From: an uncultured Bacteroidota bacterium
GTDB taxonomy: Bacteria > Bacteroidota > Ignavibacteria > UBA10030 > UBA8401
Length of the DNA stretch: 64,000 nucleotides
Direction of reading: 5' to 3'
Assembly: GCA_937920105.1 (NCBI GenBank)
Contig: CALETH010000070.1
Span: forward strand, 7,483 to 71,482
In this document: positions 19,597 to 59,620 of the stretch, one piece after another
Position numbering within the stretch: the first letter of the stretch is position 1
How the letters are laid out: the number at the start of each line of letters is the position of its first letter
Translations under genes and position numbers: made by a program
The notes under the pieces: model-generated
Database searches by the model: none
What the model saw: only the letters and a program-made list of their open reading frames with translations
What the model was told of the DNA's origin: nothing

Positions 19597-19670
19597 GTGC
19601 CTGTAGCTCAACTGGATAGAGCAACAGCCTTCTAAGCTGTAGGTTATTGGTTCGATTCCAATCAGGCACA
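19597..19670 (+). tRNA. tRNA-Arg (anticodon TCT)
   Basis: Cloverleaf fits: acceptor GTGCCTG/CAGGCAC, D-arm GCTC-AACTGGATA-GAGC, anticodon arm ACAGC-CTTCTAA-GCTGT, and T-arm ATTGG-TTCGATT-CCAAT. No encoded CCA. Confidence 0.85.
19629..19670 (+). repeat. attL core: 42-bp direct repeat (3' half of tRNA-Arg)
   Basis: cttctaagctgtaggttattggttcgattccaatcaggcaca is identical to 59570-59611. Confidence 0.8.
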
Positions 19671-19725
19671 CTGATTTTATTGATTGACTTTGTTGCTTCA
19701 GATTTATACTGCCAAAAAACTGCCA

Positions 19726-20766
19726 TTACTTTTTATTGATCTGCAATTTGTTTATTAGCTTCTTTTCTGTTTTTTGTAGTCGTTCTTGTACCATCTCCTG
19801 TGTAAACCCTAAATAATGTCTTCGTGAGACCTCCGAGGTGTGTCCTAGTAGTTTTTGGTTCGTAGCTTCAGGAATGCCGCTATCAGCGAGATAACTAGCA
19901 AACGTGCTTCTAAGACTATGCAAAGAAGCGTTTTTAATGTTAGCAAGACGAAACATTTCTGTAAAACTTTTACTGATGTTATCTCTACTACCAGAAAATG
20001 GTGTAACTTCATATTTTCTTCCTAGTAATAATTTTTTAATCTCTTCTCCCATTGGAACAATTCTTATTTTTTTTGTTTTTGTTTTGCGAAAGATAATTGT
20101 ATTTTTTTGAAAATCAATATCATCCCAGTTTAGATTTAAGGCTTCACTAAGTCTACAACCGGTTAACAAATAAAAAATAAATAAAGGTATAAGAGTTGAT
20201 TTATTTTGTTGAATAGTTTTATATAGTAATTCTATTTCTTTTATTGTGAGAACTCTTGGCAGTGGAAGTTCAATAGAAAGGCGTTTAATGTTGAGGAATG
20301 GATTTTCTTCAATATATTTCCATCTTAGGGCAGTGTTAAAAATAGCTTTTAGTCCACGTATGTACCAATTAACACCATTTGCTGTCATCGTAGGTGTAAT
20401 TTGAGTAATAAAAAAATCAGCTTTTGCTACAGTGATATCGTTGAGATATTCTGGGTGTAAAACGGTTTTTAATTTTTTTAAGATATATTTTTCGTTTGAT
20501 AATTGACCTTGACTTTTTCTTACCTTGACATAGTTTAAATATTCCTCGGCGAATTGTTCAAATACTATTTTTTTAGGTTTCTTTTTTATTCCAAAAATTC
20601 CTAATGAAATTTCGGCATCTACTTTTTTTTGAATAAGGCGAGCTTCAGCAGGTATTCTTCCTTTTTCAGGATTTATTTTAAGTGATTTTCTTTGACGTTT
20701 GCCAAATTGGTCAGTATAGTCTAAATATACTTTATTTGATTTTTTATCAATGTAGAGGCGAGACAT
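19726..20766 (-). CDS. Tyrosine-type phage integrase
   Basis: C-terminal catalytic region ...LHSLRSTFASYLADSGIPEATNQKLLGHTSEVSRRHYLGF shows the R...HxxR...Y pattern. It sits adjacent to tRNA/att. Confidence 0.85.
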   Translation of the reverse strand: MSRLYIDKKSNKVYLDYTDQFGKRQRKSLKINPEKGRIPAEARLIQKKVDAEISLGIFGIKKKPKKIVFEQFAEEYLNYVKVRKSQGQLSNEKYILKKLKTVLHPEYLNDITVAKADFFITQITPTMTANGVNWYIRGLKAIFNTALRWKYIEENPFLNIKRLSIELPLPRVLTIKEIELLYKTIQQNKSTLIPLFIFYLLTGCRLSEALNLNWDDIDFQKNTIIFRKTKTKKIRIVPMGEEIKKLLLGRKYEVTPFSGSRDNISKSFTEMFRLANIKNASLHSLRSTFASYLADSGIPEATNQKLLGHTSEVSRRHYLGFTQEMVQERLQKTEKKLINKLQINKK

Positions 20767-21837: not shown

Positions 21838-22207
21838 TGTGTTGTAACAATTTTCTTAAAGTTATTTCTGCTTCCTCCATGTTAGCAGGGTTTATGTTGC
21901 GAAAAGCTTCTAATACTTTTCTTATAGCGGCAATATTAGTATTGTGATTGCTAGAAAAGTTAATTTGTATCGGTGAATCAGGGTCTTGTTTTTTTCCAGT
22001 AATGAGCCATTGAATATCACAGTCCTCTAAAGCAAGTGGTATCATTAAATCCACAGGATTAAATTCACCGGAAAAATATTTATTAACCCATTGTGGTTGA
22101 ATGTTCATTTTTTCTGCGAATTCTTTTTTTGTTTTATAACCTTTACTACAAAAAAATTCGTAGAGTCTCTTGCCTCGTTCACTGTATGGGTATTTTTTAT
22201 CATCCAT
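21812..22207 (-). CDS. XRE/CI-like HTH repressor (paralogue 1)
   Basis: HTH KKEFAEKMNIQPQWVNKYFSGE followed by a DIQWLITGK motif. The C-terminal region is similar to the neighbouring paralogue. Confidence 0.55.
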   Translation of the reverse strand: MDDKKYPYSERGKRLYEFFCSKGYKTKKEFAEKMNIQPQWVNKYFSGEFNPVDLMIPLALEDCDIQWLITGKKQDPDSPIQINFSSNHNTNIAAIRKVLEAFRNINPANMEEAEITLRKLLQHNVNCRTSP

Positions 22208-22608
22208 TATTGTTGGATTTTAGCATCATCTCTTAACATTCTACGAAGCATTTGTTCTGCAAGTTCTACATCTTTTGGATTAGCTTCTAATAACATATCT
22301 AATATGTTTCTAACGGCTTTTATATTTTTAGGATTCACATCGTTTAAAGAAAAGCTTACTTGATTTTCTAAAAGTTTTTTTTCCTCCTTACTTTTTCCCG
22401 TCATTAGCCATTCTATATCACAACCAAGTTCTCGAAGTTTTTGTTGTAATTTATTCCCAGGTATTCTATCACCAGAAAGGTATAATTGCAGATTACCCTG
22501 AGTTATGCCTAACTCTTCAGCATATTTTTTTTTCCAACCAAAATCGGGCCCAAAAGTTAATAGACCGAACTCATGTAATCTTTTAGCTATTTCTTTGTTT
22601 TTTTGCAT
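22207..22608 (-). CDS. XRE/CI-like HTH repressor (paralogue 2)
   Basis: HTH ...YAEELGITQGNLQLYLSGD and a DIEWLMTGK motif. It is a tandem paralogue of 21812-22207. Confidence 0.55.
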   Translation of the reverse strand: MQKNKEIAKRLHEFGLLTFGPDFGWKKKYAEELGITQGNLQLYLSGDRIPGNKLQQKLRELGCDIEWLMTGKSKEEKKLLENQVSFSLNDVNPKNIKAVRNILDMLLEANPKDVELAEQMLRRMLRDDAKIQQ

Positions 22609-22626: not shown

Positions 22627-22671
22627 TGTAGTATTTTTTACTTGACAAATACTACAAATGTAGTTATATTG
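22627..22671 (+). promoter_or_regulatory. Divergent switch region: sigma70-like promoter (TTGACA-17-TATATT) with three TGTAGTA operator half-sites
   Basis: TGTAGTA at 22627, inverted TACTACA at 22650 and TGTAGTT at 22659. -35 TTGACA at 22642-22647 and -10 TATATT at 22665-22670. Confidence 0.45.
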
Positions 22672-29111: not shown

Positions 29112-29567
29112 ATGAAAATCTTTGCTATAGACCCCGGCACGCTACAATCTGCTTACATTCTTTGGAATGGAAAAAATGTTCTTGAAAAAGGCATTGTAAA
29201 TAACGCTTTGTTACTTGAAACAATAATTCCTTCTTTAGAAATGAATCTTTCTATTATTGAAATGGTGGCAAGTTATGGTATGCCGGTTGGCAAAGAAATT
29301 TTTGAAACAGTCCGGTGGATTGGCAGATTTGAGGAAAGAATTTTAACAGTTGGTTATTCAAAAAAAGTAGAACTTGTTTATAGAAGAGAAGTGAAGTTAC
29401 ATCACTGTCATTCTGCAAAAGCAAAAGATGCTAATATACGGCAAGCATTAGTTGATAAATATGGCAAACCCGGAACAAAGAAAAATCCAGGTGTAACGTA
29501 TGGCATTACTAAAGATATGTGGAGTGCGTTTGCACTTGCAACATATAAAATGGAGGGTCAAAAATGA
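29112..29567 (+). CDS. RuvC-like Holliday-junction resolvase (phage type)
   Basis: MKIFAIDPGTLQSAYILW N-terminus resembles RuvC/YqgF-fold resolvases. Confidence 0.4.
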   Translation: MKIFAIDPGTLQSAYILWNGKNVLEKGIVNNALLLETIIPSLEMNLSIIEMVASYGMPVGKEIFETVRWIGRFEERILTVGYSKKVELVYRREVKLHHCHSAKAKDANIRQALVDKYGKPGTKKNPGVTYGITKDMWSAFALATYKMEGQK

Positions 29568-29755
29568 ATGCACGAAGAGAATATCGTAATAAAAAAATTC
29601 GAGAATTTTTTAAAAAAGAAATAGAGAAAAAACATTCTGCCGAAAAAATAATTGATGAGCTTGCTCAACAATATTGTTTAGAATGGGATACAATTCGACA
29701 GATTGTGTACGATAAGAAATACGGAAAGAGAGGGAATGCAAAAAGTAATCTTTAA
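29564..29755 (+). CDS. Hypothetical small basic protein
   Basis: ORF overlapping the previous stop. Confidence 0.25.
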   Translation: MNARREYRNKKIREFFKKEIEKKHSAEKIIDELAQQYCLEWDTIRQIVYDKKYGKRGNAKSNL

Positions 29756-29761
29756 ATGATA

Positions 29762-30088
29762 TTAGTTATGGTTTTTTTCAGAACTATCTTCCTCATCCTC
29801 ACCACGTTGAATAATTTCCCGCAACCATTCAAAATAACCCTTATCCATTCTAACGGCATGATGAGTAATTTCTTTATTCTTTTTTGCTAAATCCCTTGCA
29901 ATTTCCACCGCTTCCTTTGCTGTCATTTCTGCTTTAGTAAGAAGTGCTGCATTAAGCATAGATTGCATTTTGGTTTCTGTATAGTTACGCCAACCATTAT
30001 GAGAGATATAATCCAAAAAAGAAATAAGAAAAAACCATCCTATCAATAATACCACTGTTAAAAAAAACAGTATCATTAATTCAATCAT
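29762..30088 (-). CDS. Small single-pass membrane protein (cargo cassette)
   Basis: N-terminal TM helix. It overlaps the upstream gene by 8 nt. Confidence 0.4.
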   Translation of the reverse strand: MIELMILFFLTVVLLIGWFFLISFLDYISHNGWRNYTETKMQSMLNAALLTKAEMTAKEAVEIARDLAKKNKEITHHAVRMDKGYFEWLREIIQRGEDEEDSSEKNHN

Positions 30089-30827
30089 GAGTTAATATCT
30101 CTCCAATCTTTTTCTTTGCTGTCTTATTATATTTTTTAAATTGATACAAACCATAAATAATTGTAAGATTTTTGCAAATATTCACTACGGGATATAATAC
30201 TCGTAATAACGGAAGTGATTCTAAATATGTATGAATGATAATATTACAAAACGCTGCTAATGCAACGGCAACCACAATAAAAAAATACGGATTGTGAGTT
30301 GGAGGAACGCTACTATTGGTAATAAAATAGGAGAATGTAAAAAGTCCAGTGGTGATAAGAATAAAACATGATGTATTGTAAGAAATAGTACCCAAACCAT
30401 TAAATGGTTCTATTCCCGATATTTTGAGATATGACCAAAAAATAATAAACCCAGTTATTAACCCATAACAAAGATATTTTACGATAGAATGTTTGTATGT
30501 CCAAGAAGTAAAAGCATATACAAAAACTATAAAGGAGAGCAATGTGTAAATATGTTTCAATAATAATTCATTACCGCGAAAAATATTTTGTAGAAATATA
30601 CCTAATGACGTTTGATAGCCAATGTAATAATCTTGAAAAATAAGTACCGTAATGATATCAAATAATGGGCTAAAAATAGAAAGAGAAAATATTAATATTA
30701 ATGTTAAAGGTAATACATCTTCCCATTTAGATTTAACTTCCCTCCAAAAATTAAAAATATAAACATTGGCCGCTATTGAAATAAAAAGTGCCATAAAAGA
30801 ATGAAATATAGAAAATTTATCTACCAT
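30081..30827 (-). CDS. Polytopic membrane protein (cargo cassette; paralogue of 63220-63894)
   Basis: About 7 TM segments. SGIEPFNGLGTIS...VPPTHNPYFF aligns with VGLENFHAMDLMS...IPPIKPDPLYQ of the host copy. Confidence 0.5.
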   Translation of the reverse strand: MVDKFSIFHSFMALFISIAANVYIFNFWREVKSKWEDVLPLTLILIFSLSIFSPLFDIITVLIFQDYYIGYQTSLGIFLQNIFRGNELLLKHIYTLLSFIVFVYAFTSWTYKHSIVKYLCYGLITGFIIFWSYLKISGIEPFNGLGTISYNTSCFILITTGLFTFSYFITNSSVPPTHNPYFFIVVAVALAAFCNIIIHTYLESLPLLRVLYPVVNICKNLTIIYGLYQFKKYNKTAKKKIGEILTHD

Positions 30828-30871
30828 AGAATAATCCTTTCAGAAATGTAGAGAACTAATATTTATAGTTA

Positions 30872-31627
30872 TTATTTAGGTGGTGGTAGAAATATATCAT
30901 CCTCTTTAAAATTTGTTTCTTTAGGTGGTAGCAATATGTTATCATTTGCTCCAATGCCGGATTTAAATAAAGGAGCAGAACTATTAACATTTACCAATAC
31001 AAACGTAAATGCGTTTTTAGTAGTTCCACAATATAATCGAATACCAGCTACGTTTGGATTTGCTAACAACCGTTCAATACTTTCTCGCGAAGACCACTTT
31101 TGTGAAACTCCATTAACATTTACGCTTCCGTTCTGTGTAAGTTGTAACCCTGTAGCATAACTAATTTCTTGCCCTTCATTTACCGCAGTACTTTTTATTA
31201 TTTCTCCATACATATTTAAAGGATAGAGTACTGTAGTAAATCTCCCAACATCATTTATTGCTAAACACATTGCAACGCCTCGTACTTCTTTAGAAAAGAA
31301 AATTTTAGACCACATTGCACGTGGTACATATGTATTAGTTACACCTCTTACATTTTGTGTATAGTAAGAAGTTTTTTCCTGTGCTTCTTTATTTGTTAAT
31401 GGTCTTCCACCACCATTCACCCAATCTAAATTTTCTCTTCGTGGAAATAATCGTGTTGTTCTTAAATACGAATCTTGTGTTTCTGTTTGGATGGTTTGTT
31501 GTTGGGGCAGAAAATTTTCTGCCCGTACGGATTGTTGTGTATCTTGTGGTGAGGTGGGACTTTCATTATTACATCCGATGAGAATGTATGAAAGAAATAC
31601 AAATGAGATAATGATATAATTTTTCAT
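30872..31627 (-). CDS. Lipoprotein (cargo cassette; paralogue of 62525-63190)
   Basis: Lipobox LIGC. GCNNESPTSPQDTQQSVRAENFLPQQ aligns with GCNNEAPTSPQEPQQNVRAENFPPQQ of the host copy. Similarity runs to the C-terminus (LPPPK/MPPPSK). Confidence 0.55.
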   Translation of the reverse strand: MKNYIIISFVFLSYILIGCNNESPTSPQDTQQSVRAENFLPQQQTIQTETQDSYLRTTRLFPRRENLDWVNGGGRPLTNKEAQEKTSYYTQNVRGVTNTYVPRAMWSKIFFSKEVRGVAMCLAINDVGRFTTVLYPLNMYGEIIKSTAVNEGQEISYATGLQLTQNGSVNVNGVSQKWSSRESIERLLANPNVAGIRLYCGTTKNAFTFVLVNVNSSAPLFKSGIGANDNILLPPKETNFKEDDIFLPPPK

Positions 31628-31651
31628 AAGATTTTATTATAAGTTAATAAA

Positions 31652-32020
31652 TTAGTTTTTGGGTGCTATTTTCTTCTGTTGTTTTCTTTCTTTAAAGAAA
31701 GTATAAAAAATGTAGATGAACATTACATCTGTATAGAAACTTAATACCGTACCGGCTATTCCTGTTCCTAAAAATGTTATTTCGTTTTCGTTGGTTGTAG
31801 GAATAATATACATTGTCCACAAACGACCGAAGGACCATACGGCTATTGTTCCGGCAATGACATAAGCAAAATAAGGAACGTGTGAGTTTTTTTGTTTTTG
31901 TATTTTCTCAAACCTTTTACGATTAATAACAATAAGTGAAGCAGCAATGCAATATAAAATAACTACTGCAGTCTTTAACATTATTTGTTGGTTTTCAAAA
32001 ATAGAATTTAAAAATCCCAT
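31652..32020 (-). CDS. Small membrane protein
   Basis: 3-4 predicted TM helices. Confidence 0.4.
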   Translation of the reverse strand: MGFLNSIFENQQIMLKTAVVILYCIAASLIVINRKRFEKIQKQKNSHVPYFAYVIAGTIAVWSFGRLWTMYIIPTTNENEITFLGTGIAGTVLSFYTDVMFIYIFYTFFKERKQQKKIAPKN

Positions 32021-32106
32021 AACACAAAATTAGTTTTTAACACAATTTTACTTTTACAGCAGTATAATACTATTTCAAAATTTGGCTATATGTAGCCACT
32101 CCTTAC

Positions 32107-32150
32107 AAAAAACACGAAAGCGGAGAAGGTATTTCACTTCGTCCGCTTTC
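32107..32150 (-). terminator. Rho-independent terminator (minus strand) after the T9SS cargo gene
   Basis: Stem gaaagcgga/tccgctttc with a T-run on the minus strand (plus-strand aaaaaaca). Confidence 0.5.
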
Positions 32151-32277
32151 AGTAACTTCCATATTTTGTATGGAAACACTTTGTAGGTTTCTATAGAAAA
32201 TTATGCTATGCAATGGTGTGTAATATTATATGTTGGTTACATTATATAATTTAATTTTAAGAATGTCAAGAGATTAT

Positions 32278-32904
32278 TTATTTCACCAGCATCATCCGTT
32301 TTCTAAATACCTCAGTTTTGCCTGTTTCATTTTTGTAGCGACACTCATAAATATACATTCCGCTGGACACACTACTTGCATTCCATTGTTGTTGATGGTA
32401 ACCTGCTGTTTGTTCTTGCTCTACTAATTTGGAAATTTCTTGTCCCAATGTGTTGTAAATTACTAACTGCACAAATCCATTGGTTGGTAATTGATAGGTA
32501 ATTGTTGTTATGGGATTGAATGGGTTGGGATAGTTTTGTTGTAACTCAAATTTTTCTGGTGCTAATATTGTATAAGCAATTTCTTTTTTCCATTCTTCTC
32601 CATTAGTAGATTGTACAACTATGGTAAATTTTTGTTCTGTATTGACTGGTGCTGTTTTTTCTATTGCAAAGTTGAGTGTGATAGTTTTTTCTTCTTGGCT
32701 ATTCAAGGATATTTCTTGTACTGAATTATTTTTTATAGTTATTCCTTGTGGGAGGTTTTCTACTTTTACGGAGAGTGTTGTAGTAATAACTCCAGTATTG
32801 GCAATGGTAAATTCTACAGAATTATTTTTTGATGCAAAGGGTATTTTTGCTGTTTCTGCTTTGGCAATGTTGAGCAAGAAGAGGATGATGATGAGTTTTT
32901 TCAT
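32278..32904 (-). CDS. Small secreted protein with T9SS C-terminal sorting domain (prophage cargo)
   Basis: Signal peptide. C-terminus NYPNPFNPITTITYQLPTNGFVQLVIYNTLGQEI...GMYIYECR is the T9SS CTD signature. Confidence 0.7.
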   Translation of the reverse strand: MKKLIIILFLLNIAKAETAKIPFASKNNSVEFTIANTGVITTTLSVKVENLPQGITIKNNSVQEISLNSQEEKTITLNFAIEKTAPVNTEQKFTIVVQSTNGEEWKKEIAYTILAPEKFELQQNYPNPFNPITTITYQLPTNGFVQLVIYNTLGQEISKLVEQEQTAGYHQQQWNASSVSSGMYIYECRYKNETGKTEVFRKRMMLVK

Positions 32905-32958
32905 AAAAGTTTTTAGTTATTAGTGTATAATTTTTTGTTATTTCTACAAAAGAGTCAT

Positions 32959-32990
32959 AGTCATTCCCGCACGTTGTAAGGGGGAATTCA
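32959..32990. repeat. REP-like palindromic element copy 3 (inside the prophage cargo island)
   Basis: AGTCATTCCCGCACGTTGTAAGGGGGAATTCA shares its termini with the host copies. Confidence 0.5.
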
Positions 32991-33077
32991 GTTTAAAATA
33001 TTTAGAACGCTGATTTCTTAAGATTATTACTGATTATTTTCTTATTCTATTTTTCTTACTTCTTCTACCTTCTTATT

Positions 33078-34418
33078 TTATTTCTTCAATCTTTCCAAAA
33101 TATATTTAGAATTATCCGTTAAAAAATCATATCCATCTTTGGTAACAAAACGTGGTGTGTTAAGTTTGAGATATTCTTTTTCTAATTTGCTGTTGTATTT
33201 TTCCAACTCGGTGATACATTTGTTTTTATTGTTTTGCAAATAATGATTTTTTGCATTGCTGATGGTAAGAGTTAGTTCGTTGACAAAGTTTGCATTACCA
33301 ATCCAGTTGAGTGTAGCAGATTGTTTAGTAAAAGATGCTAATGTATCTAACGTGGCGGGAATAGACAAAGAATCTAAATGCTCATTAATATTTTCTTGAT
33401 AATGGTCTCTTAATTCATAATAAAGATGAGTATAGTAAGACCCACCCTGTGGAAGTTGGGCTAATAATTTTTGTAATTCATATTTAACTACTGGTGTAAT
33501 AAGGTCTTGCATACGCCATATTACATTATATGCTAATGAAGTATCGGTAATTGGCGGAGTGATTAAAGCCATACATGCGGGAATAACGGATACATCATTA
33601 TAATATTCTATAAGATGCCAAATTGCTTCATACCGTACTTTTGTTGATGTATCAGTAAAAGCGAACTGTTTGAACAATGTATAGGTTTCTGAAAAATCTT
33701 TAAAATTAATTAATACACCGACAGCATGAGCACGGTATTCTACATTAGGAACGGTTAATAATTCTTTATATCGTGTATAGACTTGTGAACGTAAAGGAAG
33801 ATTTCTTCCAAACCATGCTAAATAATTTTGATTTATTTGTGTATATGGAAGCGAGGAATAATAATTGTAATACGAATAATCTTGATGATGAAGCACTACA
33901 CACAATGCTTTTTCAAATGCATCATCTATCCATTTTATATAGTAAGGGGCGGGACGTGGATTTTGCCTTCTTGTTATTATCGTATCCAATAATGCTTTTG
34001 CCATTGGATATGCATCAGGGTCACCAAGCTGGTCTAATGCAAGAAGATAATCACCCATTAAATAAGTATGTTTTACATTTCCTTGTAATGATTCATAATA
34101 TCGTTGTTTCATAGCGGGGATAATATCTGTTTTTCCACGAGCTGCTAACATAATATATGCTCCGTGGCTTTTTTCATAAAAACGGTTTCTCCTTATTTGT
34201 TGTGTGTTTTCATCATAATTTTGGTAGTTTGTGGTATCAATTAATAATGAATATAATTGTGCCTCTGTTACTGTTTTTTCTTCTCTTGGAGTGTTAAAAA
34301 CTCGTAAAAGCCAAAGCATTTTTATCCCTGCCTCTTCGGAAAAACAGGGATTGTTCTGTGCAATAGTTATTGATGTTATAGATAATATTATCGTACATAA
34401 AAAAATGTATCGTTTCAT
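33078..34418 (-). CDS. Hypothetical secreted protein (446 aa)
   Basis: Signal peptide and no recognisable catalytic motif. Largely helical, Tyr-rich composition. Confidence 0.45.
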   Translation of the reverse strand: MKRYIFLCTIILSITSITIAQNNPCFSEEAGIKMLWLLRVFNTPREEKTVTEAQLYSLLIDTTNYQNYDENTQQIRRNRFYEKSHGAYIMLAARGKTDIIPAMKQRYYESLQGNVKHTYLMGDYLLALDQLGDPDAYPMAKALLDTIITRRQNPRPAPYYIKWIDDAFEKALCVVLHHQDYSYYNYYSSLPYTQINQNYLAWFGRNLPLRSQVYTRYKELLTVPNVEYRAHAVGVLINFKDFSETYTLFKQFAFTDTSTKVRYEAIWHLIEYYNDVSVIPACMALITPPITDTSLAYNVIWRMQDLITPVVKYELQKLLAQLPQGGSYYTHLYYELRDHYQENINEHLDSLSIPATLDTLASFTKQSATLNWIGNANFVNELTLTISNAKNHYLQNNKNKCITELEKYNSKLEKEYLKLNTPRFVTKDGYDFLTDNSKYILERLKK

Positions 34419-34436
34419 AAATGTTCTCCGTAAATA

Positions 34437-36383
34437 TTATAAGTTAAATTTTGTTTTGATTGCTTTCACTAAATTCTCAAGATATTTTTTTTCTTTTTCA
34501 TGGGCTATAATTTCATTGGCATTCCAAAGTTTTGTATCAGTATCAAATGGACCAATTTTTCCTCGTAAAGTCATATCCACATCTCTTTCTTTATCTTTAA
34601 GTTGTTGTTGAGTGATGTTTTGTGCAAGCGTTGTCGGCATACAAGGGTTAGTAATTTGTAGTTCTGTTTTTACTGTATCTATAATTCTTGCTATACCGGC
34701 TTTATATTCCGTTGCGTGAGTGAGTTCATGCAATGCAATCCCTTCTAAAGAAACATAATTGTTCATCGGGATGGATTTTTCTGCATCAGTTAGTTTTTTT
34801 GCTGGGTCAAACTCATTGGCTTTTTGATATCTTTTAATCACTTTTTCAATATCTTTCATTTGTTTTTCGTACTCTTTTACAACAGCAATGGCCATGTTTT
34901 TATCGGTAACTTGGTTCACGTTATCCACCTTTGTTTTACCAGAATTAGCACAAATAAAAACTCCAATATTTGCATAGACATCTGCTATTTCGTATTTCAC
35001 ACAATTTCTTTGTTGGTCTAAACATAATACTAATTGCAGCATGTTTTGGGTTTCGTCCGGCAGTTGCAATCGCGTATATCCGCCTTCATCACAATTAGCA
35101 CCCATAACGTAATTTTCTGTTATAGAAAATTGAGACGGATTGTTGCATGGCTCAAATTTTTCACCATCTACTTTAAAAAGTGCTTGTGCAATTTTCTTTA
35201 ACCAATTCGCTGTTAAAATAACTGTTGGTGTAGAAGTTACATTACTATTTGCTGCACTCGAACCCACCAATCCTTTTAATCCATCCAACCCGCCGTTTTT
35301 TGCTGTTGTTGTTGGTGGTGGTGGTGGTGCATTTGTCGGCTGACCTATCACTTTTACTTTTCCTGCTAATACTTCATCTAAAGTTGCGGTGGTATAATTT
35401 ATTCCTGCTAATTCTGGTTTATCTAAAGAAAAATTTATGATACTATTTCCAGGTAAGGTAGAAGTAATATCGGTACTATCACTTCTGTATCCTTTTACAC
35501 TCACAATGGCACTATCTCCATAATTAATACTATCTGGGGTAACAAATACTTTGATGTGGTGTAAATCATTTGCACGAATGAGTATTAACTTTCCAGTTGT
35601 ATCACTGGCACTTCCGGCAATATTGGTGGCTGTTACTTGTACCGGTGTTCGTAATGTATCTCCGGGTTTTATTTGGTTAAGATAGTTTTGTGTATTAAAT
35701 GTTTGTTGCGGCGACCATGTTGTTGTTGGTGCGTATTTTCCTGCTGGTGTAGTTGAACAGGTATAACTTGCTATAGGAAATGTTGTTGTTTGACTGCTGA
35801 TAGTATATTGTTTTATTTTTGTTCCGGTGATACTTACCGTTGGTTTTGGTATTGGTCTGTAACGGATAGTTCCGTGAAGTTCATAGGGTCCACTTCCATT
35901 GGGATAATTGATACTTCTATAGACATTAGTGGTAATAAGGTCTCCTTGTGTTGGTGGAACTACTGGTTGATACTGAATAGAGGTTGTATTGTATGGTGGT
36001 GATATGCCGTAATTATATTCTGGTCCGTTATAGTTTTTTACTTCTGCAGTAGTACTTAATGGGACTGGTCCGATAGTAGGACTTCGCACCATCCATACAG
36101 TTTTACCAGGAAATCTTGCATTGAGTGCAATGGTATCTACTTGTCCGGTAGAAAGTTCTAATCGTGTAAGTCCTCCCATTCCAGGCCATGGTGTATAGGG
36201 ATAATAATAGAGATGGTAATAATAATAAATATCTACCCATGTTGTAGTTTGGTCTGGTGTACTTGTTGCTTGCAATGGTATTTTGAGTTTTGGTTGTATC
36301 TCTAATCGTTCTTTAATGATGACTTGGGAATAAAGTGAGAAGGAAGAAAGAAGTAGTATGAAAAGCGTAGCGAATTTTTTCAT
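34437..36383 (-). CDS. Large secreted protein with C-terminal HEXXH (putative zinc-metallopeptidase-like) domain
   Basis: Signal peptide, a beta-rich N-terminal half, a PPPPP linker and a C-terminal LEGIALHELTHATEYKAG HExxH motif. Confidence 0.5.
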   Translation of the reverse strand: MKKFATLFILLLSSFSLYSQVIIKERLEIQPKLKIPLQATSTPDQTTTWVDIYYYYHLYYYPYTPWPGMGGLTRLELSTGQVDTIALNARFPGKTVWMVRSPTIGPVPLSTTAEVKNYNGPEYNYGISPPYNTTSIQYQPVVPPTQGDLITTNVYRSINYPNGSGPYELHGTIRYRPIPKPTVSITGTKIKQYTISSQTTTFPIASYTCSTTPAGKYAPTTTWSPQQTFNTQNYLNQIKPGDTLRTPVQVTATNIAGSASDTTGKLILIRANDLHHIKVFVTPDSINYGDSAIVSVKGYRSDSTDITSTLPGNSIINFSLDKPELAGINYTTATLDEVLAGKVKVIGQPTNAPPPPPTTTAKNGGLDGLKGLVGSSAANSNVTSTPTVILTANWLKKIAQALFKVDGEKFEPCNNPSQFSITENYVMGANCDEGGYTRLQLPDETQNMLQLVLCLDQQRNCVKYEIADVYANIGVFICANSGKTKVDNVNQVTDKNMAIAVVKEYEKQMKDIEKVIKRYQKANEFDPAKKLTDAEKSIPMNNYVSLEGIALHELTHATEYKAGIARIIDTVKTELQITNPCMPTTLAQNITQQQLKDKERDVDMTLRGKIGPFDTDTKLWNANEIIAHEKEKKYLENLVKAIKTKFNL

Positions 36384-36475
36384 AAAAATTTTGATTAAGT
36401 TAAAGATGTATAATTATATAACCTTGTTTTTATTAAAACAATTAATAAAAAATTTCAAATAGTATAACCCTTATA

Positions 36476-36503
36476 TTGACAAATTTCAAGTATGTAGTAT
36501 ATT
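36476..36503 (+). promoter_or_regulatory. Sigma70-like promoter (TTGACA-16-TATATT), candidate late promoter
   Basis: -35 at 36476-36481 and -10 at 36498-36503. An intrinsic terminator follows about 50 nt downstream. Confidence 0.4.
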
Positions 36504-36552
36504 AGGTCTGTGGAGAGTGAATCTCCGTAATGCGTTCTCCGTGTTTTATTTA

Positions 36553-36588
36553 AGCCCGTTGCTGGTCCCAGCGGTAACGGGCTTTTTT
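36553..36588 (+). terminator. Strong intrinsic terminator immediately upstream of the packaging operon (tR'-like)
   Basis: agcccgtt...aacgggct stem with an inner gctgg/ccagc, then TTTTTT. Confidence 0.6.
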
Positions 36589-36610
36589 ATTGTACCTCAC
36601 ACAAAAAAGT

Positions 36611-37219
36611 ATGAACATCACCGATAGAATTCTCAAAACAGAAAAAATTGCATGGCGTGAATTGGAATGGTTCATTATTGAAAAGAATGTTGAAGTAAAA
36701 GAAATATTGCAATCCAATTTTGATAAACTGAAAAAAAGTTTGTTAGAAAATTCTGTTATTCAAACGTTCGCTGTGTGGGAGCATGACGGCAAGATAGTAA
36801 TTTTGGATGGAAGGGAAAAACAAAAAGCACTTCAAGAATTAGAGAATGAAGGACACACTATTCCGGATATACTTTCTGCAAATTTTATTGAATGCAAAAA
36901 TACTGCAGAAGCCGCAAAAGTAGTATTACTGTATTCTTCCATTTATGCAAAACTTACGGAAGAAGGTTTATCCTATTTGATTGCTCTTACACAAACTGAC
37001 CTTAATAAATTAATAAAAGAAATAGAACTACCATCATTCAATTTGAGCAAGTTTGTAGAAAAACAATTGACTGAAGAAAACGGAATTTCTCCGTTAAAAG
37101 AATTCAATTACACTCCGCAGTATGGAGTGATTGTTTTGTGTGAAGATGAAGAAAAACAAAAAATCATTTACGAAAAATTAAGCGGGCAAGGATATTCTTG
37201 CCGAGTTGTTGTTACATGA
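36611..37219 (+). CDS. Putative ParB/Srx-like nuclease-domain protein
   Basis: ATG at 36611. Only a loose ParB-N pattern (...VILDGREKQKAL...). Its stop overlaps the next start (ATGA). Confidence 0.3.
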   Translation: MNITDRILKTEKIAWRELEWFIIEKNVEVKEILQSNFDKLKKSLLENSVIQTFAVWEHDGKIVILDGREKQKALQELENEGHTIPDILSANFIECKNTAEAAKVVLLYSSIYAKLTEEGLSYLIALTQTDLNKLIKEIELPSFNLSKFVEKQLTEENGISPLKEFNYTPQYGVIVLCEDEEKQKIIYEKLSGQGYSCRVVVT

Positions 37220-38355
37220 AAATAGATATTCACCATCAATGTAGTGATTTCCAAAGTTACAGAGCCGCACGAGTAAAAAGTTTATTCAACGCGGAGAAGG
37301 GATGTGATTTTCTTTTTTCGTGTGAACTGAATATAGATGACCCGAATTGGAAACTTGGTGTCATTGTCGGTCCAAGTGGAAGCGGAAAAAGTTCTCTCGG
37401 TAAAAAAATTTTTGGTGAAGAGTTTCTCTACAATATGGAAAATGATTGGAATGTTGATAGTCCGATTATAGACTGTATTGCTCCCACTGGAGATTTTAAC
37501 GAAGTAACCGGAGCGTTAGCAAGTGTAGGTTTAGGAGATGTCCCAGCATGGTTACGTCCGTTTCATGTTCTTTCTAACGGACAAAAATTTCGTGCAGGGC
37601 TTGCACGATTGATAGTTGAAAAACCGGAACAAGTCGTTGTTGATGAATTTACCAGTGTGGTTGATAGACAAATTGCAAAGATAGGAGCGCAAGCATTTGC
37701 CAAAGCATGGAAACGCGGAAAAGGTCAATGTGTGTTGTTATCCTGCCACTATGATATCCTTGATTGGTTAGAACCGGATTGGGTATTTGACACGGCAAGC
37801 GGAAAGTTTGCAAGGGGGAATCTTTGGCGAAGGCCACAATTTGAACTTCAAATTTGGAAGACAAACTCCAGTTACTGGAAATATTTTAAACCGCATTACT
37901 ATTTGAATTTACCAATGCCAATTGCGGCAGAATATTTTGTTGGAACTGTAGAAAATGAACTTGTATGTCATCTTGCTGTTACACCGTTTTTTACAGCGAA
38001 ATCGTACAGAGCAACACGATTAGTAGTAATGCCGGAATGGCAAGGTGCTGGTGTAGGAACAAAATTTTTGGATTGGGTATGTGAGTATCATTTACAAGGA
38101 GACGGAAGATGTGGTAAAAAATTTCCTGTGAGATTTCATACTTCACATCCTCAACTTTGTAATGCACTACGAAAAAATTCAAAGTGGAATCAACTTGGAG
38201 CAGTGCTGTATGGAGGCAACAAAAAAAAATCTATTCAAACTATCGGTAAGTCTTCGCTACGAAGAAGTAAAAAAATAGGAACTGGTTTTGGTGGACATTT
38301 TAGGGCAGTGCAAAGTTTTATGTATATCGGAAACAAAAATAAATTCACACAATGA
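37216..38355 (+). CDS. ABC-type ATPase domain fused to GNAT-fold acyltransferase domain
   Basis: Walker A GPSGSGKS, ABC signature LSNGQKFRAGLARL, Walker B VVVDEF and H-loop LLSCH. A C-terminal GNAT motif A is present (RLVVMPEWQGAGVGTKFL). Confidence 0.6.
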   Translation: MKIDIHHQCSDFQSYRAARVKSLFNAEKGCDFLFSCELNIDDPNWKLGVIVGPSGSGKSSLGKKIFGEEFLYNMENDWNVDSPIIDCIAPTGDFNEVTGALASVGLGDVPAWLRPFHVLSNGQKFRAGLARLIVEKPEQVVVDEFTSVVDRQIAKIGAQAFAKAWKRGKGQCVLLSCHYDILDWLEPDWVFDTASGKFARGNLWRRPQFELQIWKTNSSYWKYFKPHYYLNLPMPIAAEYFVGTVENELVCHLAVTPFFTAKSYRATRLVVMPEWQGAGVGTKFLDWVCEYHLQGDGRCGKKFPVRFHTSHPQLCNALRKNSKWNQLGAVLYGGNKKKSIQTIGKSSLRRSKKIGTGFGGHFRAVQSFMYIGNKNKFTQ

Positions 38356-38852
38356 ACGCTTATATATACAATGCTGATTCAAATCAAGTTATGATAAATG
38401 AGGCAAAACGGCTTCTTAAAAATATGAATATCACACAAGTAGAATCACTGAGTGAAGCAGATATTGCTATTGCACCGTTTCTGACAAAAAAACTTTCAAA
38501 AGAAATTATAAGCGTTCCTCGTTATGGAACGCTCATATTTCATCCTTCATTATTACCTCGACATAGAGGGAAAGATGCTATCAAGTGGGCATTCAAATTA
38601 CAAGAACGTTATACCGGTGTTACATGGTTTTGGGCAAGCGAGAGTTATGATACAGGAGATATTTGTGAACAAGAAGTTGTTGCAATACAAGAAGGTGAAA
38701 CACCATGGAATTTTTATACACGTGCAGTAGTACCGGTTGCAATGAGAACTCTACGTAGAGTATTGTTTGATATACAACATAATATCATAAGAAGAATTCC
38801 ACAGTATGAAGAACACGCAAGTTATGAACCGCCATTTGAAACAAAAAAATAA
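38352..38852 (+). CDS. Minimal formyltransferase-domain protein (Fmt/PurN catalytic core)
   Basis: GTLIFHPSLLPRHRGKDAIKWAF...GVTWFWASESYDTGDI matches the Fmt motif xNxHxSLLPxxRG...DTG. The Asn position is Ile. No C-terminal tRNA-binding domain. Confidence 0.6.
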   Translation: MNAYIYNADSNQVMINEAKRLLKNMNITQVESLSEADIAIAPFLTKKLSKEIISVPRYGTLIFHPSLLPRHRGKDAIKWAFKLQERYTGVTWFWASESYDTGDICEQEVVAIQEGETPWNFYTRAVVPVAMRTLRRVLFDIQHNIIRRIPQYEEHASYEPPFETKK

Positions 38853-40190: not shown

Positions 40191-40754
40191 ATGGCAGCAA
40201 CAAAAAGAACAAAAATTGAAATTCAAAAAGAGCGAATGGAAATTGCTCGTTATTACTTGCAAGGAAAATCTCAAATCGAAATCGCTCAAATATTGAGTTC
40301 CGAAACACGAAAAGTAACTCAACAAATGGTGAGTTATGATTTGAAGATTATTCAAGAGGGATGGTTGCAAAGTGCATTACGAGATTTTGACGAGGCACGT
40401 GCTCAAGAACTTGCAAGGATAGATGCGTTAGAACGTGAATATTGGGAAGCATGGGAACGTTCAAAAGTACCACTCAAAGTTACTGAAAGTGAACGTTCCG
40501 ATGGAAATACATCAACAAAAAAAGCAAAGATTAAACAAACCGATTCCATTGGAAATACAAAATATCTTGAAGGTGTGCAATGGTGTGTAGAAAGACGATG
40601 TCAGTTATTAGGATTTGACGCTCCTAAAAAATTAGACCATTCAGGAAAATTAAATCTTAACAACTATAGTTTTGATGTGAGCAAACTTACCGATGAACAA
40701 TTGCAACGAATTATAAAAGGAGAAAATCCTTTGAATGTTATTAGTGCAACCTAA
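40191..40754 (+). CDS. Terminase small subunit (HTH)
   Basis: HTH region YYLQGKSQIEIAQIL. It sits immediately upstream of, and overlapping, TerL. Confidence 0.55.
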   Translation: MAATKRTKIEIQKERMEIARYYLQGKSQIEIAQILSSETRKVTQQMVSYDLKIIQEGWLQSALRDFDEARAQELARIDALEREYWEAWERSKVPLKVTESERSDGNTSTKKAKIKQTDSIGNTKYLEGVQWCVERRCQLLGFDAPKKLDHSGKLNLNNYSFDVSKLTDEQLQRIIKGENPLNVISAT

Positions 40755-42159
40755 TGAGAAAATGGATTTTCGTGTACAAGCAATGGCGGAAATTGAACTT
40801 CGCAAAAGAGTCGGTGGAAGTTTCGAAAACTTTGTCAATCATGTAAAAAAAGGAAAGTACGAATGGTATCGTCATTGCAAAGTTCTTGCAAACACATTAG
40901 AGAAAGTTCTTTCCGGTGAGATAAAACGTTTGATGGTATTTATGCCTCCACGTCATGGAAAAAGTGAATTAGCCAGCAGACTTTTTCCTGCATACACTCT
41001 CTATAAAAGAGAAACAATACAGATAGGTTTAACTTCTTATAGTGGAGACCTTGCTCATAGTTTGAGTCGATACGCACGAGACAATTATGAAATATCAGGA
41101 AAAGTATTACGCAATGATGCAGCCGCTACTCGTGAATGGTACACACTTACTAACGGTGTCATGTGGGCGGCTGGTGTTGGTGGTCCCATTACAGGAAAAG
41201 GTTTTGATATAGGAATTATTGATGACCCGTTGAAAAATGCTGAAGAAGCATATTCGGAAAGAGTAAGAGAAAATTGTAAAGAATGGTATGATTCAACGTT
41301 TTATACAAGAGCCGAACCCGATGCAGCAATCATTATTATTCAAACACGATGGCACGAAGATGATTTATGCGGTTGGTTACTTTCACGAGAAGAAGAAAAA
41401 CCGGAACATTGGCACATTCTCCATTTTGATGCACTAAAATCTTCGGAAGAATTACAATTTCCTAAAACGTGTACAGTGGAATACGATTGGAGAAAACAAG
41501 GAGAGGCACTGTGTCCCGAAAGATTTAATGAAGAAAAACTTCGTGATATACAAAAAAAAATTGGTTCTATTTTTTGGACAGCATTATATCAACAACGGCC
41601 AACAGCAATGTCCGGTGATATATGGAGAAGAGAATGGTTCAAAAATACTTTTGAACTTAGCACACTTCTTAATCAAAATATTTTATTAGACGTAGGATAT
41701 GATTGGGATTTGGCATACACGGAAGATGACAGAAACACAGCGTGTTGTTATGTAAAAAGCGGAAGAGATGTAAAAGGAAATATTTACATCCTTGATATTG
41801 GTTTTGAGTGGTACGAATTTCCCGAACTTATTAAATGGATGATATCACTTCAAGGACCGCATTTTATAGAAGCGAAAGCAAGTGGAAAATCTGCAAAGCA
41901 AACATTAACACGACAAAACATAGCAGCAAGTGAAGTAGAAGTTCAAGGCGGAGATAAAATTAGTAGAGCAAGACTTGCTACTCCAATGGTAGAAAATGGA
42001 AAAGTTTTTATTGCTTCACACATACTGGAAAAACTTCTTGAAGATTCGAAACAAGGATTACTCCACTTTCCTAATGGCAGTCATAATGATTTAAACGATG
42101 CTTTTGTGCAATCTATTAACCGACATACAAAACAATCAACACAATTATTTTTTATTTAA
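40735..42159 (+). CDS. Terminase large subunit
   Basis: ATPase motif LMVFMPPRHGKSE and a C-terminal nuclease-like region with acidic residues. Confidence 0.75.
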   Translation: MLLVQPNEKMDFRVQAMAEIELRKRVGGSFENFVNHVKKGKYEWYRHCKVLANTLEKVLSGEIKRLMVFMPPRHGKSELASRLFPAYTLYKRETIQIGLTSYSGDLAHSLSRYARDNYEISGKVLRNDAAATREWYTLTNGVMWAAGVGGPITGKGFDIGIIDDPLKNAEEAYSERVRENCKEWYDSTFYTRAEPDAAIIIIQTRWHEDDLCGWLLSREEEKPEHWHILHFDALKSSEELQFPKTCTVEYDWRKQGEALCPERFNEEKLRDIQKKIGSIFWTALYQQRPTAMSGDIWRREWFKNTFELSTLLNQNILLDVGYDWDLAYTEDDRNTACCYVKSGRDVKGNIYILDIGFEWYEFPELIKWMISLQGPHFIEAKASGKSAKQTLTRQNIAASEVEVQGGDKISRARLATPMVENGKVFIASHILEKLLEDSKQGLLHFPNGSHNDLNDAFVQSINRHTKQSTQLFFI

Positions 42160-58535: not shown

Positions 58536-58991
58536 ATGATACTTTCTGAACATTTTACTTTGAAAGAAATGATTCGCTCTGCAAAAGCAAGTGAGTTAAA
58601 AATAAATAATACACCATCACAAAAAGAAATTGATAATTTAAAACTTTTATGTGAAGAAGTGCTTGAGCCACTAAGAAAATTAATTGGTAAACCAATACAT
58701 GTTACTAGTGGTTATCGTTGTAGAGAATTAAATAATGTGGTTCCCTTTGCCTCAAAAAATAGCGACCATATCGATGGAAACGCTGCAGATATTTTTGTAA
58801 ATGGTATGACAGTAGAAGAAGTTTTTAGTGTGATTTGTGTACAATCTGTTTTTTCCTACGGTCAAGTTATTTGTGAACGACTTCTGGGAAAAAATTGGGT
58901 ACACATTTCTCGGGTTACGAAAAAACATAAAATGGAAAAATGGCTTGCAAATAAAATTGTTAATAAGAAGGTAGTGTATGAAAAATATTGA
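58536..58991 (+). CDS. Endolysin, peptidase M15 family (zinc D,D-/L,D-peptidase)
   Basis: SDHIDGNAADI and HVTSGYR motifs. Confidence 0.7.
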   Translation: MILSEHFTLKEMIRSAKASELKINNTPSQKEIDNLKLLCEEVLEPLRKLIGKPIHVTSGYRCRELNNVVPFASKNSDHIDGNAADIFVNGMTVEEVFSVICVQSVFSYGQVICERLLGKNWVHISRVTKKHKMEKWLANKIVNKKVVYEKY

Positions 58992-59204: not shown

Positions 59205-59252
59205 TTGACAAAAGAAGTGATGTTCTATATAATCAATGTAATTAATAGAACA
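59205..59252 (+). promoter_or_regulatory. Consensus sigma70 promoter TTGACA-17-TATAAT with an 8-bp inverted repeat across the -10 box
   Basis: TTGACA 59205-59210 and TATAAT 59228-59233. tgttctat (59221-59228) pairs with atagaaca (59245-59252). Confidence 0.5.
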
Positions 59253-59269
59253 TTATTTTAAGGATTATT

Positions 59270-59461
59270 ATGAATACAACAATAGAAAAATTTGTAGAAA
59301 TTGCAAAAGCACATTTCGTTTCCACAAATAGAGCAGATATAGCTGAATTAATTAGTAAAAAAAATTACGTGGATTATGCTAAAGTAGCATTGCATGAATT
59401 GGAAGAAAAAAATGCAAAAAGGTTAGTTGGAATTTTTTCGAAAATAGTTTATTTTGAGTAA
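59270..59461 (+). CDS. Small hypothetical protein at the prophage right end
   Basis: aagga RBS 7 nt upstream of the ATG. Confidence 0.3.
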   Translation: MNTTIEKFVEIAKAHFVSTNRADIAELISKKNYVDYAKVALHELEEKNAKRLVGIFSKIVYFE

Positions 59462-59569: not shown

Positions 59570-59611
59570 CTTCTAAGCTGTAGGTTATTGGTTCGATTCC
59601 AATCAGGCACA
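59570..59611 (+). repeat. attR core (42-bp copy of the tRNA-Arg 3' half)
   Basis: Identical to 19629-19670. Upstream sequence diverges from the tRNA 5' part. Confidence 0.8.
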
Positions 59612-59620
59612 CAGAAATTT

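Follow-up and report, generated by a model that had tools for sequence, protein, structure and literature searches.

An island of seven minus-strand genes interrupts the plus-strand genes of a prophage in an uncultured Bacteroidota bacterium (Ignavibacteria; UBA10030; UBA8401), and part of this island has an organization that resembles a polymorphic toxin system. The DNA analysed, called the window here, is a stretch of 64,000 nucleotides (nt) from contig CALETH010000070.1 of GenBank assembly GCA_937920105.1 (positions 7,483 to 71,482), and all coordinates are counted from its first letter. The favoured explanation, to which we give a probability of roughly 0.5, is that the island (29762-36383) is cargo of a temperate phage of about 40 kb, and that one of its two transcription units, unit A, is a polymorphic effector/cognate-partner module of the toxin/immunity type. 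Unit A consists of genes for proteins of 648, 446, and 208 amino acids (aa), whereas unit B encodes four proteins of 122, 251, 248, and 108 aa. Together, the seven consecutive open reading frames (ORFs) fill the whole interval between the early and the late plus-strand blocks, which amounts to 6.6 kb and 16% of the prophage.

The 648-aa secreted protein

The first gene of unit A (34437-36383, minus strand) encodes a protein of 648 aa with a signal peptide (residues 1-20) that is predicted to be cleaved between ...LYS and QVI, leaving a glutamine at position +1. A glutamine at +1 after signal cleavage corresponds to the Q-rule of Bacteroidetes (PMC5837995), and signal peptides following this rule were also found in homologues of the 648- and 446-aa proteins at other loci. 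The mature protein is composed of a conserved all-beta N-terminal region reaching to about residue 345, a proline-rich linker, and a variable alpha-helical C-terminal domain, in which the sequence HELTH, an HExxH motif, occupies residues 552-556 (nucleotides 34716-34730).

Among 5.8 billion clustered proteins, only five belong to the family of this protein. In the N-terminus they are 59-81% identical; beyond a break near residue 345 and the proline-rich linker, the value drops to 16-39% for the C-terminus. The HExxH motif is kept in four of the five members; the remaining one, P0004, carries the same N-terminus joined to an unrelated C-terminus without HExxH. That C-terminus had been considered as SLT/lysozyme-like on account of the motifs E-S...GLKQ...YNGG, and this candidate was dropped, as neither Pfam nor PDB supported it.

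An alignment of seven HExxH C-terminal domains, including three from the metagenomic locus L189 described below, showed that the only invariant positions at 17-38% identity are H188, E189, and H192 (H-E-x-x-H), two cysteines, and one proline. The invariance of HExxH at such low identity indicates that the motif is under selection, and the conserved cysteines suggest that the C-terminal domain is extracytoplasmic. As for an assignment to the zincins, HExxH is kept in these domains but no glutamate, histidine, or aspartate downstream of it is invariant. The 648-aa protein did not match any Pfam, NCBIfam, PHROG, PADLOC, or PDB sequence.

The 446-aa HEAT-FIMAH protein

The second gene of unit A (33078-34418, minus strand) starts 18 bp past the stop codon of the 648-aa gene. 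Its product also has a signal peptide, with predicted cleavage between ...TIA and QNN and a glutamine at +1. The AlphaFold2 (AF2) model of this protein has a predicted local distance difference test score (pLDDT) of 91.9 and shows an alpha-solenoid of 23 helices, for which Foldseek returned generic ARM/HEAT scaffolds only. The profile of the family, in turn, matches alphaRep/HEAT structures in PDB. About 200 homologues were found, and among 31 of them HEAT_2 is present in 12 and FIMAH in 10. The protein is thus modelled as a scaffold that is secreted and binds other proteins, with a helical C-terminal (FIMAH) domain as its constant part, and it is a candidate for the cognate, immunity-like partner of the 648-aa protein. 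Longer HEAT-FIMAH homologues bear adhesin-type repeats (Flg_new_2, beta-helix, and TIG). A literature search on FIMAH retrieved only papers on fimA-H fimbriae.

The 208-aa protein and the module at other loci

The third gene (32278-32904, minus strand) is separated from the 446-aa gene by a spacer of 173 bp. It encodes a protein of 208 aa with a signal peptide, one Ig-like domain, and a C-terminal type A sorting domain for a type IX secretion system (T9SS); this domain scored above the curated cut-offs in both Pfam (Por_Secre_tail, 38.1 bits, cut-off 27) and NCBIfam (TIGR04183, 37.4 bits, cut-off 23). The 208-aa protein is the only one of the module that combines a sorting domain, a signal peptide, and a T9SS-bearing host, as T9SS type A cargo does; no T9SS sorting domain was found in the 446- and 648-aa proteins with Pfam and NCBIfam.

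The same three-gene order is present on an independent contig. In locus L197, an HExxH C-terminus is followed by the HEAT-FIMAH gene P0014 and then by a homologue of the 208-aa gene overlapping P0014 by 4 bp. The product of this homologue aligns with the 208-aa protein over 140 aa at 36% identity (E 3e-28), and the alignment takes in the N-terminal Ig-like part. This conservation indicates that the unit A genes form one conserved operon. Since the corresponding genes overlap in L197, the 173-bp spacer of the window (32905-33077, minus strand), which holds a hairpin with a 6-bp stem (32963-32987), is an insertion or expansion specific to the window.

In locus L196, the gene P0007, which encodes another HEAT-FIMAH protein, begins 11 bp after the C-terminal part of a P0002-type gene. 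Compared with the window, P0002 is 81% identical in its N-terminus and 39% in its C-terminus, and P0007 is 40% identical to the 446-aa protein, so that the C-terminal domain and the downstream partner diverge together.

Locus L189 (1-11455) is a metagenomic sequence of 38.6% GC in which HExxH C-terminal cassettes alternate with HEAT-FIMAH genes. It contains a large gene with a terminal HExxH domain and a HEAT-FIMAH neighbour, and two further cassettes come after them, so the pairing is seen three times. A repeat of 248 nt that originates inside the large gene is present in three copies (starts at 606, 4085, and 6568; 74-89% identical). Every copy leads into an HExxH C-terminus unlike the others, which has a HEAT-FIMAH gene of its own; at the two additional copies, these are orphan cassettes. 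Here the HExxH domain is joined to an N-terminal region unlike that of the window. A protein with beta-propeller, TIG, and FIMAH domains is encoded after the cassette array. The reverse combination was found in locus L161, where a related N-terminus of the window type is joined to a weak C39-like cysteine-peptidase region; the 274-aa protein encoded downstream has a weak resemblance to FIMAH (18.7 bits, under the cut-off, and E 0.63 in BLASTP) and lends weak support to the pairing.

FIMAH proteins were also found in a chromosomal array (L195, 1920-6059) of three consecutive secreted FIMAH proteins, two of them with HEAT repeats and one beta-rich. All three end in the same sequence, ...DRLPxIPPGSDSK, a possible signal for sorting or processing.

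The definition of polymorphic toxin systems used here reportedly goes back to work by Zhang, Aravind et al. in 2012. Regarding its elements, a conserved N-terminus with alternative or diverged C-termini is seen in the five family members and in L161, and a co-varying partner gene lies directly downstream in the window as well as in the pairs of L196, L197, and L189. Orphan cassettes with a junction repeat are present in the relative L189 and not in the window. No recognisable trafficking domain was found in the 648-aa protein with Pfam and NCBIfam, the T9SS domain being located on the separate 208-aa protein. A conserved delivery part, shuffled C-termini, co-varying partners, and orphan cassettes behind a repeat are signatures of polymorphic toxin/immunity systems, and the conservation of a module with this polymorphic architecture points to inter-bacterial antagonism or kin discrimination rather than to simple surface decoration. 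Judging from its sequence, unit A would work like a polymorphic effector system and would not belong to any named family, because the defining domains of those families are absent (Pfam, NCBIfam).

The same three genes could also be read, along the lines of the first-pass annotation, as encoding a metalloprotease, secreted or on the surface, together with an inhibitor, chaperone, or anchor dedicated to it. In that case, lysogeny would alter adhesion, nutrient acquisition, or host interaction, with no antibacterial role. We consider this rather unlikely. It would agree with the export signals on all three unit A proteins, one of them T9SS-sorted, with the adhesin-type repeats in the longer HEAT-FIMAH homologues, and with the FIMAH proteins of L195 that lack HExxH partners; moreover, prophages of P. 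gingivalis also encode Q-rule secreted proteins of unknown function (PMC10367356). Nevertheless, it leaves unexplained the sharp break between N- and C-terminal parts, the co-diverging partner, and the orphan cassettes behind the 248-nt repeat. Conflict systems, not housekeeping proteases, typically show these three features.

Proposed mode of action of unit A

If unit A is a toxin/immunity-type module, its function could be envisaged as follows. The island, placed at the junction of early and late genes, would be transcribed against the lytic direction from its own promoters. The 648-aa protein would be exported by Sec, its conserved beta-rich N-terminal region serving as the constant part for handling or delivery and its C-terminal HExxH (zincin-like) domain as the variable active part. 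The HEAT-FIMAH solenoid would bind that particular C-terminal domain in the periplasm of the producer, either neutralising or escorting it, and the small Ig-like T9SS-sorted protein would connect the module with the cell surface or with the outer-membrane translocon of type IX secretion. Cells that lack the matching partner, be it as non-lysogens or as carriers of another allele, would then be damaged or discriminated against. In this way, the lysogen would gain a strain-specific weapon or a kin-recognition marker, and the prophage would obtain an addiction benefit, as its own loss would be penalised.

A more specific version of this scheme, which we regard as improbable in its full form, would be an as yet undescribed T9SS-linked class of polymorphic effectors in which the effector, with a swappable HExxH domain and itself without a sorting domain, is held by the solenoid acting as both immunity protein and adaptor. 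The variable HEAT part would recognise the effector and the constant FIMAH domain would dock on the Ig-like T9SS protein, allowing a "piggy-back" type IX export or tethering, and the phage would spread the module as a kin-discrimination or addiction cassette.

Several points weigh against a toxin/immunity function of unit A. No known toxin, peptidase, or immunity family matches the 648- or the 446-aa protein, and an HExxH motif is by itself no proof of a protease. The 648-aa protein has a Sec signal only, without a T9SS sorting domain or known trafficking domain in Pfam and NCBIfam, and its AF2 model, based on a 5-sequence alignment, is unusable (pLDDT 36). Its four closest homologues (P0002-P0005) were compared as protein sequences. 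The partner proteins, with 270-580 aa, are far above the typical size of immunity proteins. Furthermore, the window itself contains no orphan C-terminal/partner cassette, and no HExxH gene lies beside the FIMAH array of L195, which means that FIMAH proteins occur without an HExxH partner. Finally, the phages available for comparison are all distant from this one (terminase large subunit TerL at most 62% and RuvC-like protein at most 54% identical).

Cargo or phage backbone

None of the seven island proteins matched PHROGs (0/7) or the PADLOC defence models (0/7; E <= 0.1). A tblastn search against 50,697 GenBank phage records gave nothing for the 648-, 446-, 251-, 248-, and 208-aa proteins. 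In IMG/VR, pattern scans for the 648-aa family, the 251- and 248-aa proteins, and the conserved FIMAH domain of the partner family came back without any relative. The phage itself has no close sequenced relative: TerL identity does not exceed 36% in GenBank phages and 62% in the large protein collection, and the IMG/VR pattern scan found no TerL relative. The relatives identified through the RuvC-like protein have only the RuvC-like gene in common with this phage. Among the 120 listed TerL relatives (at most 62% identical), none is on a contig that agrees in length with those holding homologues of the 648-aa protein.

The syntenic relatives show the corresponding region without the island. L003 presents an uninterrupted plus-strand run from the RecE-like gene to the ParB-like/phrog_11143 genes, which takes 5.8 kb instead of the 11.4 kb of the window, and in L183 the RuvC-like gene is followed by one small ORF and then by the ParB-like gene. 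L193 and L194 have the methyltransferase, small terminase, and TerL genes in common with the window (L194 also the portal gene), likewise without the island. In all four, the genes between replication and packaging are collinear on the plus strand, with no opposite-strand island. Relatives of the core module are located in non-phage chromosomal contexts (L161 and L195). This indirect comparison with distant relatives gives moderate support for the island being accessory cargo and not phage backbone.

The first-pass annotation had proposed lysogenic-conversion cargo that remodels the cell surface or secretome, and had asked for a comparison with related prophages. The accessory status of the island is supported by the comparison described above, with the restriction that L003, L183, L193, and L194 are all distant relatives, whereas the remodelling of surface or secretome is too generic a description for what was found.

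It could still be argued that the island is conserved backbone of the phage, devoted to lysis, host recognition, or morphogenesis and merely placed on the other strand. The GC content, the GC content at third codon positions (GC3), and the codon usage of the island do not differ from those of the phage or the host, and the comparison is restricted to distant relatives of this phage; both facts would be compatible with backbone genes. However, the endolysin gene lies elsewhere (58536-58991, plus strand), and every structural gene is on the plus strand. The searches of PHROGs and of phage records gave no homologue, the syntenic relatives lack the island, and relatives of the module occur in non-phage contexts, so this explanation is largely refuted and very improbable. 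The idea that the island is a lysis cassette is ruled out by the position of the endolysin. As for composition, its unremarkable values are also compatible with acquisition from a similar host and prove nothing either way.

Organization and transcription signals of the island

Regarding the organization of the interval, the first-pass annotation was partly confirmed. Its seven consecutive minus-strand genes were found exactly in this interval, with plus-strand phage genes on both sides, and the envelope and secretion features it described were borne out (a lipobox, a T9SS domain above curated cut-offs, signal peptides, and HELTH). It had also given the island a terminator of its own and a host-type repetitive extragenic palindromic (REP) element. 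A strong hairpin with a T-run is indeed present, but it is internal to the island (32116-32150) and not at its 3' end. The REP element was not borne out, as the hairpins of the island region (32963-32987, 32116-32150, and 36552-36584) have no second copy in the 64-kb window, which includes about 24 kb of host DNA.

Unit A is preceded by a candidate promoter, TTGAAA-17-TATACT (36461-36489, minus strand), which is a consensus match only (10/12) and stands back-to-back with the late-operon promoter of the phage. Unit B has a perfect sigma-70 promoter, TTGACA-17-TATAAT (32241-32269, minus strand), located 8 nt past the stop codon of the 208-aa gene and facing unit B. Promoter matches of at least 11/12 are found at six sites in the window, four of them within the prophage, namely the PR-like promoter, that of the late operon, that of unit B, and one beside attR. 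With only six such matches, and three of the others at regulatory positions of the prophage, the unit B promoter is unlikely to be fortuitous.

Between genes 5 and 4 of the island, those for the 208- and 122-aa proteins, unit A is ended by a terminator-like element (32105-32150, minus strand) made of a bulged GC-rich hairpin, GAAAGCGGAcGAAG...CTTCTCCGCTTTC (32116-32150), and a T-run. The hairpin lies 90-130 nt past the unit B promoter, and the 122-aa gene begins 88 nt further on. The intergenic region of 220 nt that contains the terminator folds with z = -4.2 and did not match any Rfam family. A promoter followed by a terminator ahead of unit B could indicate that transcription reads through under certain conditions, or that a short RNA of about 125 nt is made separately. 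At the 3' end of the island no terminator was found, and a gap of 6 bp separates it from the convergent plus-strand ORF ending at 29755.

Unit B

The four genes of unit B are all on the minus strand. The first (31652-32020) encodes a 122-aa protein with at least one transmembrane (TM) segment and probably three, and the second (30872-31627) a 251-aa lipoprotein with the lipobox LIGC at residues 16-19. The product of the third (30081-30827), with 248 aa, had been described as a 7-TM protein; it is polytopic, with four TM segments at a strict hydropathy cut-off and about 7-8 when judged by eye. The fourth gene (29762-30088) shares its first 8 nt with the end of the 248-aa gene and encodes a 108-aa protein with one N-terminal TM segment and a helical soluble domain. 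These four ORFans gave no Pfam, NCBIfam, PHROG, or PADLOC match, and the large protein collection was not searched for them. Copies of the 251-aa lipoprotein and of the 208-aa T9SS protein of unit A with at least 90% identity were found on other small metagenome contigs in ENA, which indicates that both genes are real and circulating.

Unit B may assist unit A in the envelope, or it may serve in superinfection exclusion. In its stronger form, the second option would make the whole island, or at least unit B, a superinfection-exclusion or anti-phage block whose membrane proteins and lipoprotein stop DNA entry or access to the receptor, and this form seems to us doubtful. Four small membrane protein and lipoprotein genes, oriented like the lysogeny genes and provided with a strong promoter, would suit such a block. 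Ltp, SieA, and gp15 of HK97 are examples of the many prophage exclusion proteins that are ORFan membrane proteins or lipoproteins. Against it, there was no PADLOC match and no homologue in the phage collections searched, and the terminator between the promoter and the unit B genes speaks against simple constitutive expression.

The leader of unit B, with its promoter and terminator, resembles that of the late operon, where a promoter (36476-36503) is followed by a hairpin (36552-36584) and a T-run. Because of this resemblance, unit B could be co-regulated with the lytic genes, and this is the main risk to the reading of the island as lysogenic-conversion cargo, which would have it expressed in the lysogen.

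Prophage and host context

The window is low-GC DNA (about 33%). Its only tRNA gene, tRNA-Arg(TCT) (19597-19671), carries in its 3' part the first copy (attL, 19629-19671) of a perfect direct repeat of 43 bp, whose second copy is attR (59570-59612). This perfect repeat at tRNA-Arg delimits a prophage of about 40 kb (19629-59612), which has a canonical layout and looks like an intact carrier.

Next to the tRNA gene, a tyrosine integrase gene (19726-20766, minus strand) is grouped with genes for a nuclease and for a CI-like repressor (22207-22608), both on the minus strand. The early block starts with a Cro-like gene on the plus strand, with a near-consensus PR-like promoter (22642-22670) in front of it, and continues with genes for a RecE-like exonuclease and then a replication initiator, also on the plus strand. 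A gene for a RuvC-like resolvase (29112-29567, plus strand) borders the island on the early side. Directly after it there is a 63-aa ORF (29564-29755, plus strand) with a helix-turn-helix-like C-terminus and a weak, sub-threshold NCBIfam match to the CD3324 family (21 bits). Its product may be a late-gene regulator, in which case the island would now stand between the regulator and its promoter.

On the late side, the operon promoter TTGACA-16-TATATT (36476-36503, plus strand) is near-consensus. Behind it comes a leader of about 85 nt, which contains two small hairpins and ends in a 13-bp GC-rich hairpin with a T-run (36552-36584, plus strand), directly before the first late gene. The leader gave a weak Rfam match, below the threshold, to RF02278 (28 bits; gathering score 50). 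By analogy, the promoter and leader hairpin resemble the lambda PR'-tR' arrangement of Q-type antitermination, or they could belong to a small RNA gene. The first late genes, all on the plus strand, encode in this order a ParB-like protein, an ATPase/acetyltransferase (phrog_11143), a formyltransferase-like protein, and a ParB-methyltransferase. TerL (40735-42159), portal, major head protein, tail, and endolysin genes come next, all of them on the plus strand. The stretch from the endolysin gene to attR contains another 63-aa ORF (59270-59461), which has a perfect sigma-70 promoter, TTGACA-17-TATAAT (59205-59233, plus strand), in front of it; this ORF is a candidate for a second moron at the end of the prophage.

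The first three late genes (ParB-like, phrog_11143 ATPase and acetyltransferase, and formyltransferase-like; 36590-38852, plus strand) form a cassette that was also found in otherwise unrelated prophages with 55-70% protein identity (loci L001-L160). Its hosts include Akkermansia, Clostridia, many Proteobacteria, Planctomycetota, Treponema, and Bacteroidetes. It appears to act as a promiscuous mobile module, possibly with a role in DNA modification or anti-defence. Because the cassette is common to unrelated phages of many phyla, the 160 loci that carry it are nearly useless for comparing the insertion slot of the island.

The host flanks of the prophage encode a subtilase of 1290 aa with a T9SS sorting domain (2874-6746, plus strand), SurA-type chaperones, a TonB-dependent receptor, and RuvA. 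The T9SS-sorted subtilase, the SurA-type chaperones, and the TonB-dependent receptor indicate that the host is a diderm with type IX secretion.

Significance and comparison with known systems

If unit A is an effector/immunity system, it would represent a new family of polymorphic toxins for T9SS-bearing (Bacteroidota-type) bacteria, with an N-terminal region, an HExxH domain, and a HEAT-FIMAH partner that are all unannotated. Such a system, moved by an apparently intact temperate phage, would tie lysogeny to strain-level competition and to retention of the prophage. Moreover, the conserved T9SS-sorted third gene could be a handle on how toxins of Bacteroidota without a sorting domain leave the cell; the study on TANFOR toxins likewise left the exit route of such toxins open (PMC7073777). 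Even if the module is not antibacterial, the pairing with variable secreted enzymes gives a context for about 200 uncharacterised HEAT-FIMAH proteins.

As to the position of the island, it can be compared with the morons of lambdoid phages. The early/late junction of these phages is a site of lysogenic-conversion genes, as in the case of stx downstream of Q/PR'-tR', bor, and lom. Like them, the island would consist of accessory genes that are dispensable for the phage cycle; it has its own promoters and terminator and lies beside the late-gene control region. Its location in a prophage, the independent signals for its transcription, and the lack of such a block in related phages agree with a moron, with moderate evidence given that these relatives are distant. 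In contrast to the lambdoid morons, it is larger (seven genes, 16% of the prophage), wholly antisense to lytic transcription, and unrelated in content.

Precedents for polymorphic toxins that are Sec-dependent, prophage-borne, or located in T9SS neighbourhoods are MafB (PMC4287609), SitA on Mx-alpha (PMC5562445), and TANFOR (PMC7073777). The MafB/MafI system of Neisseria (PMC4287609) shares with unit A the Sec signal, the conserved N-terminal and variable C-terminal domains, and the cognate gene directly downstream. It also has orphan C-terminal cassettes nearby, a second secretion step that is unidentified, and a horizontally acquired island with a lipoprotein gene in the locus. Nevertheless, MafB contains DUF1020 (PF06255), whereas the 648-aa protein has no Pfam match, and MafI is a small cytoplasmic immunity protein, unlike the large secreted HEAT-FIMAH solenoid of the window. 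Other differences are the unannotated HExxH C-terminal domain with conserved cysteines, the intact-looking prophage carrier, and the T9SS-sorted gene in the module.

The TANFOR toxins of Bacteroidetes (PMC7073777) are found in T9SS-bearing hosts and in neighbourhoods rich in T9SS substrates, with a toxin that has no obvious route and an immunity gene directly downstream, and in these respects they are similar to unit A. They differ in being much larger, with mostly nuclease or deaminase C-termini, and they are not known as cargo of a prophage accompanied by a HEAT-FIMAH protein. The TANFOR domain was not detected in the island with NCBIfam and Pfam (E <= 0.1 to 1).

The SitA/SitB/SitI system on Mx-alpha of Myxococcus (PMC5562445) is also a polymorphic, envelope-targeted cassette of three genes with Sec signals on a prophage-type carrier. 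SitA is a lipoprotein delivered by outer-membrane exchange, with nuclease toxin domains and no sequence relationship to unit A; in the window, the signal of the 648-aa protein is of type I, and a separate gene of unit B encodes the lipoprotein. The likeness of a three-gene cassette on a prophage-type element suggests that the element carrying unit A could obtain an addiction or kin-discrimination benefit from it, as is proposed here for the prophage.

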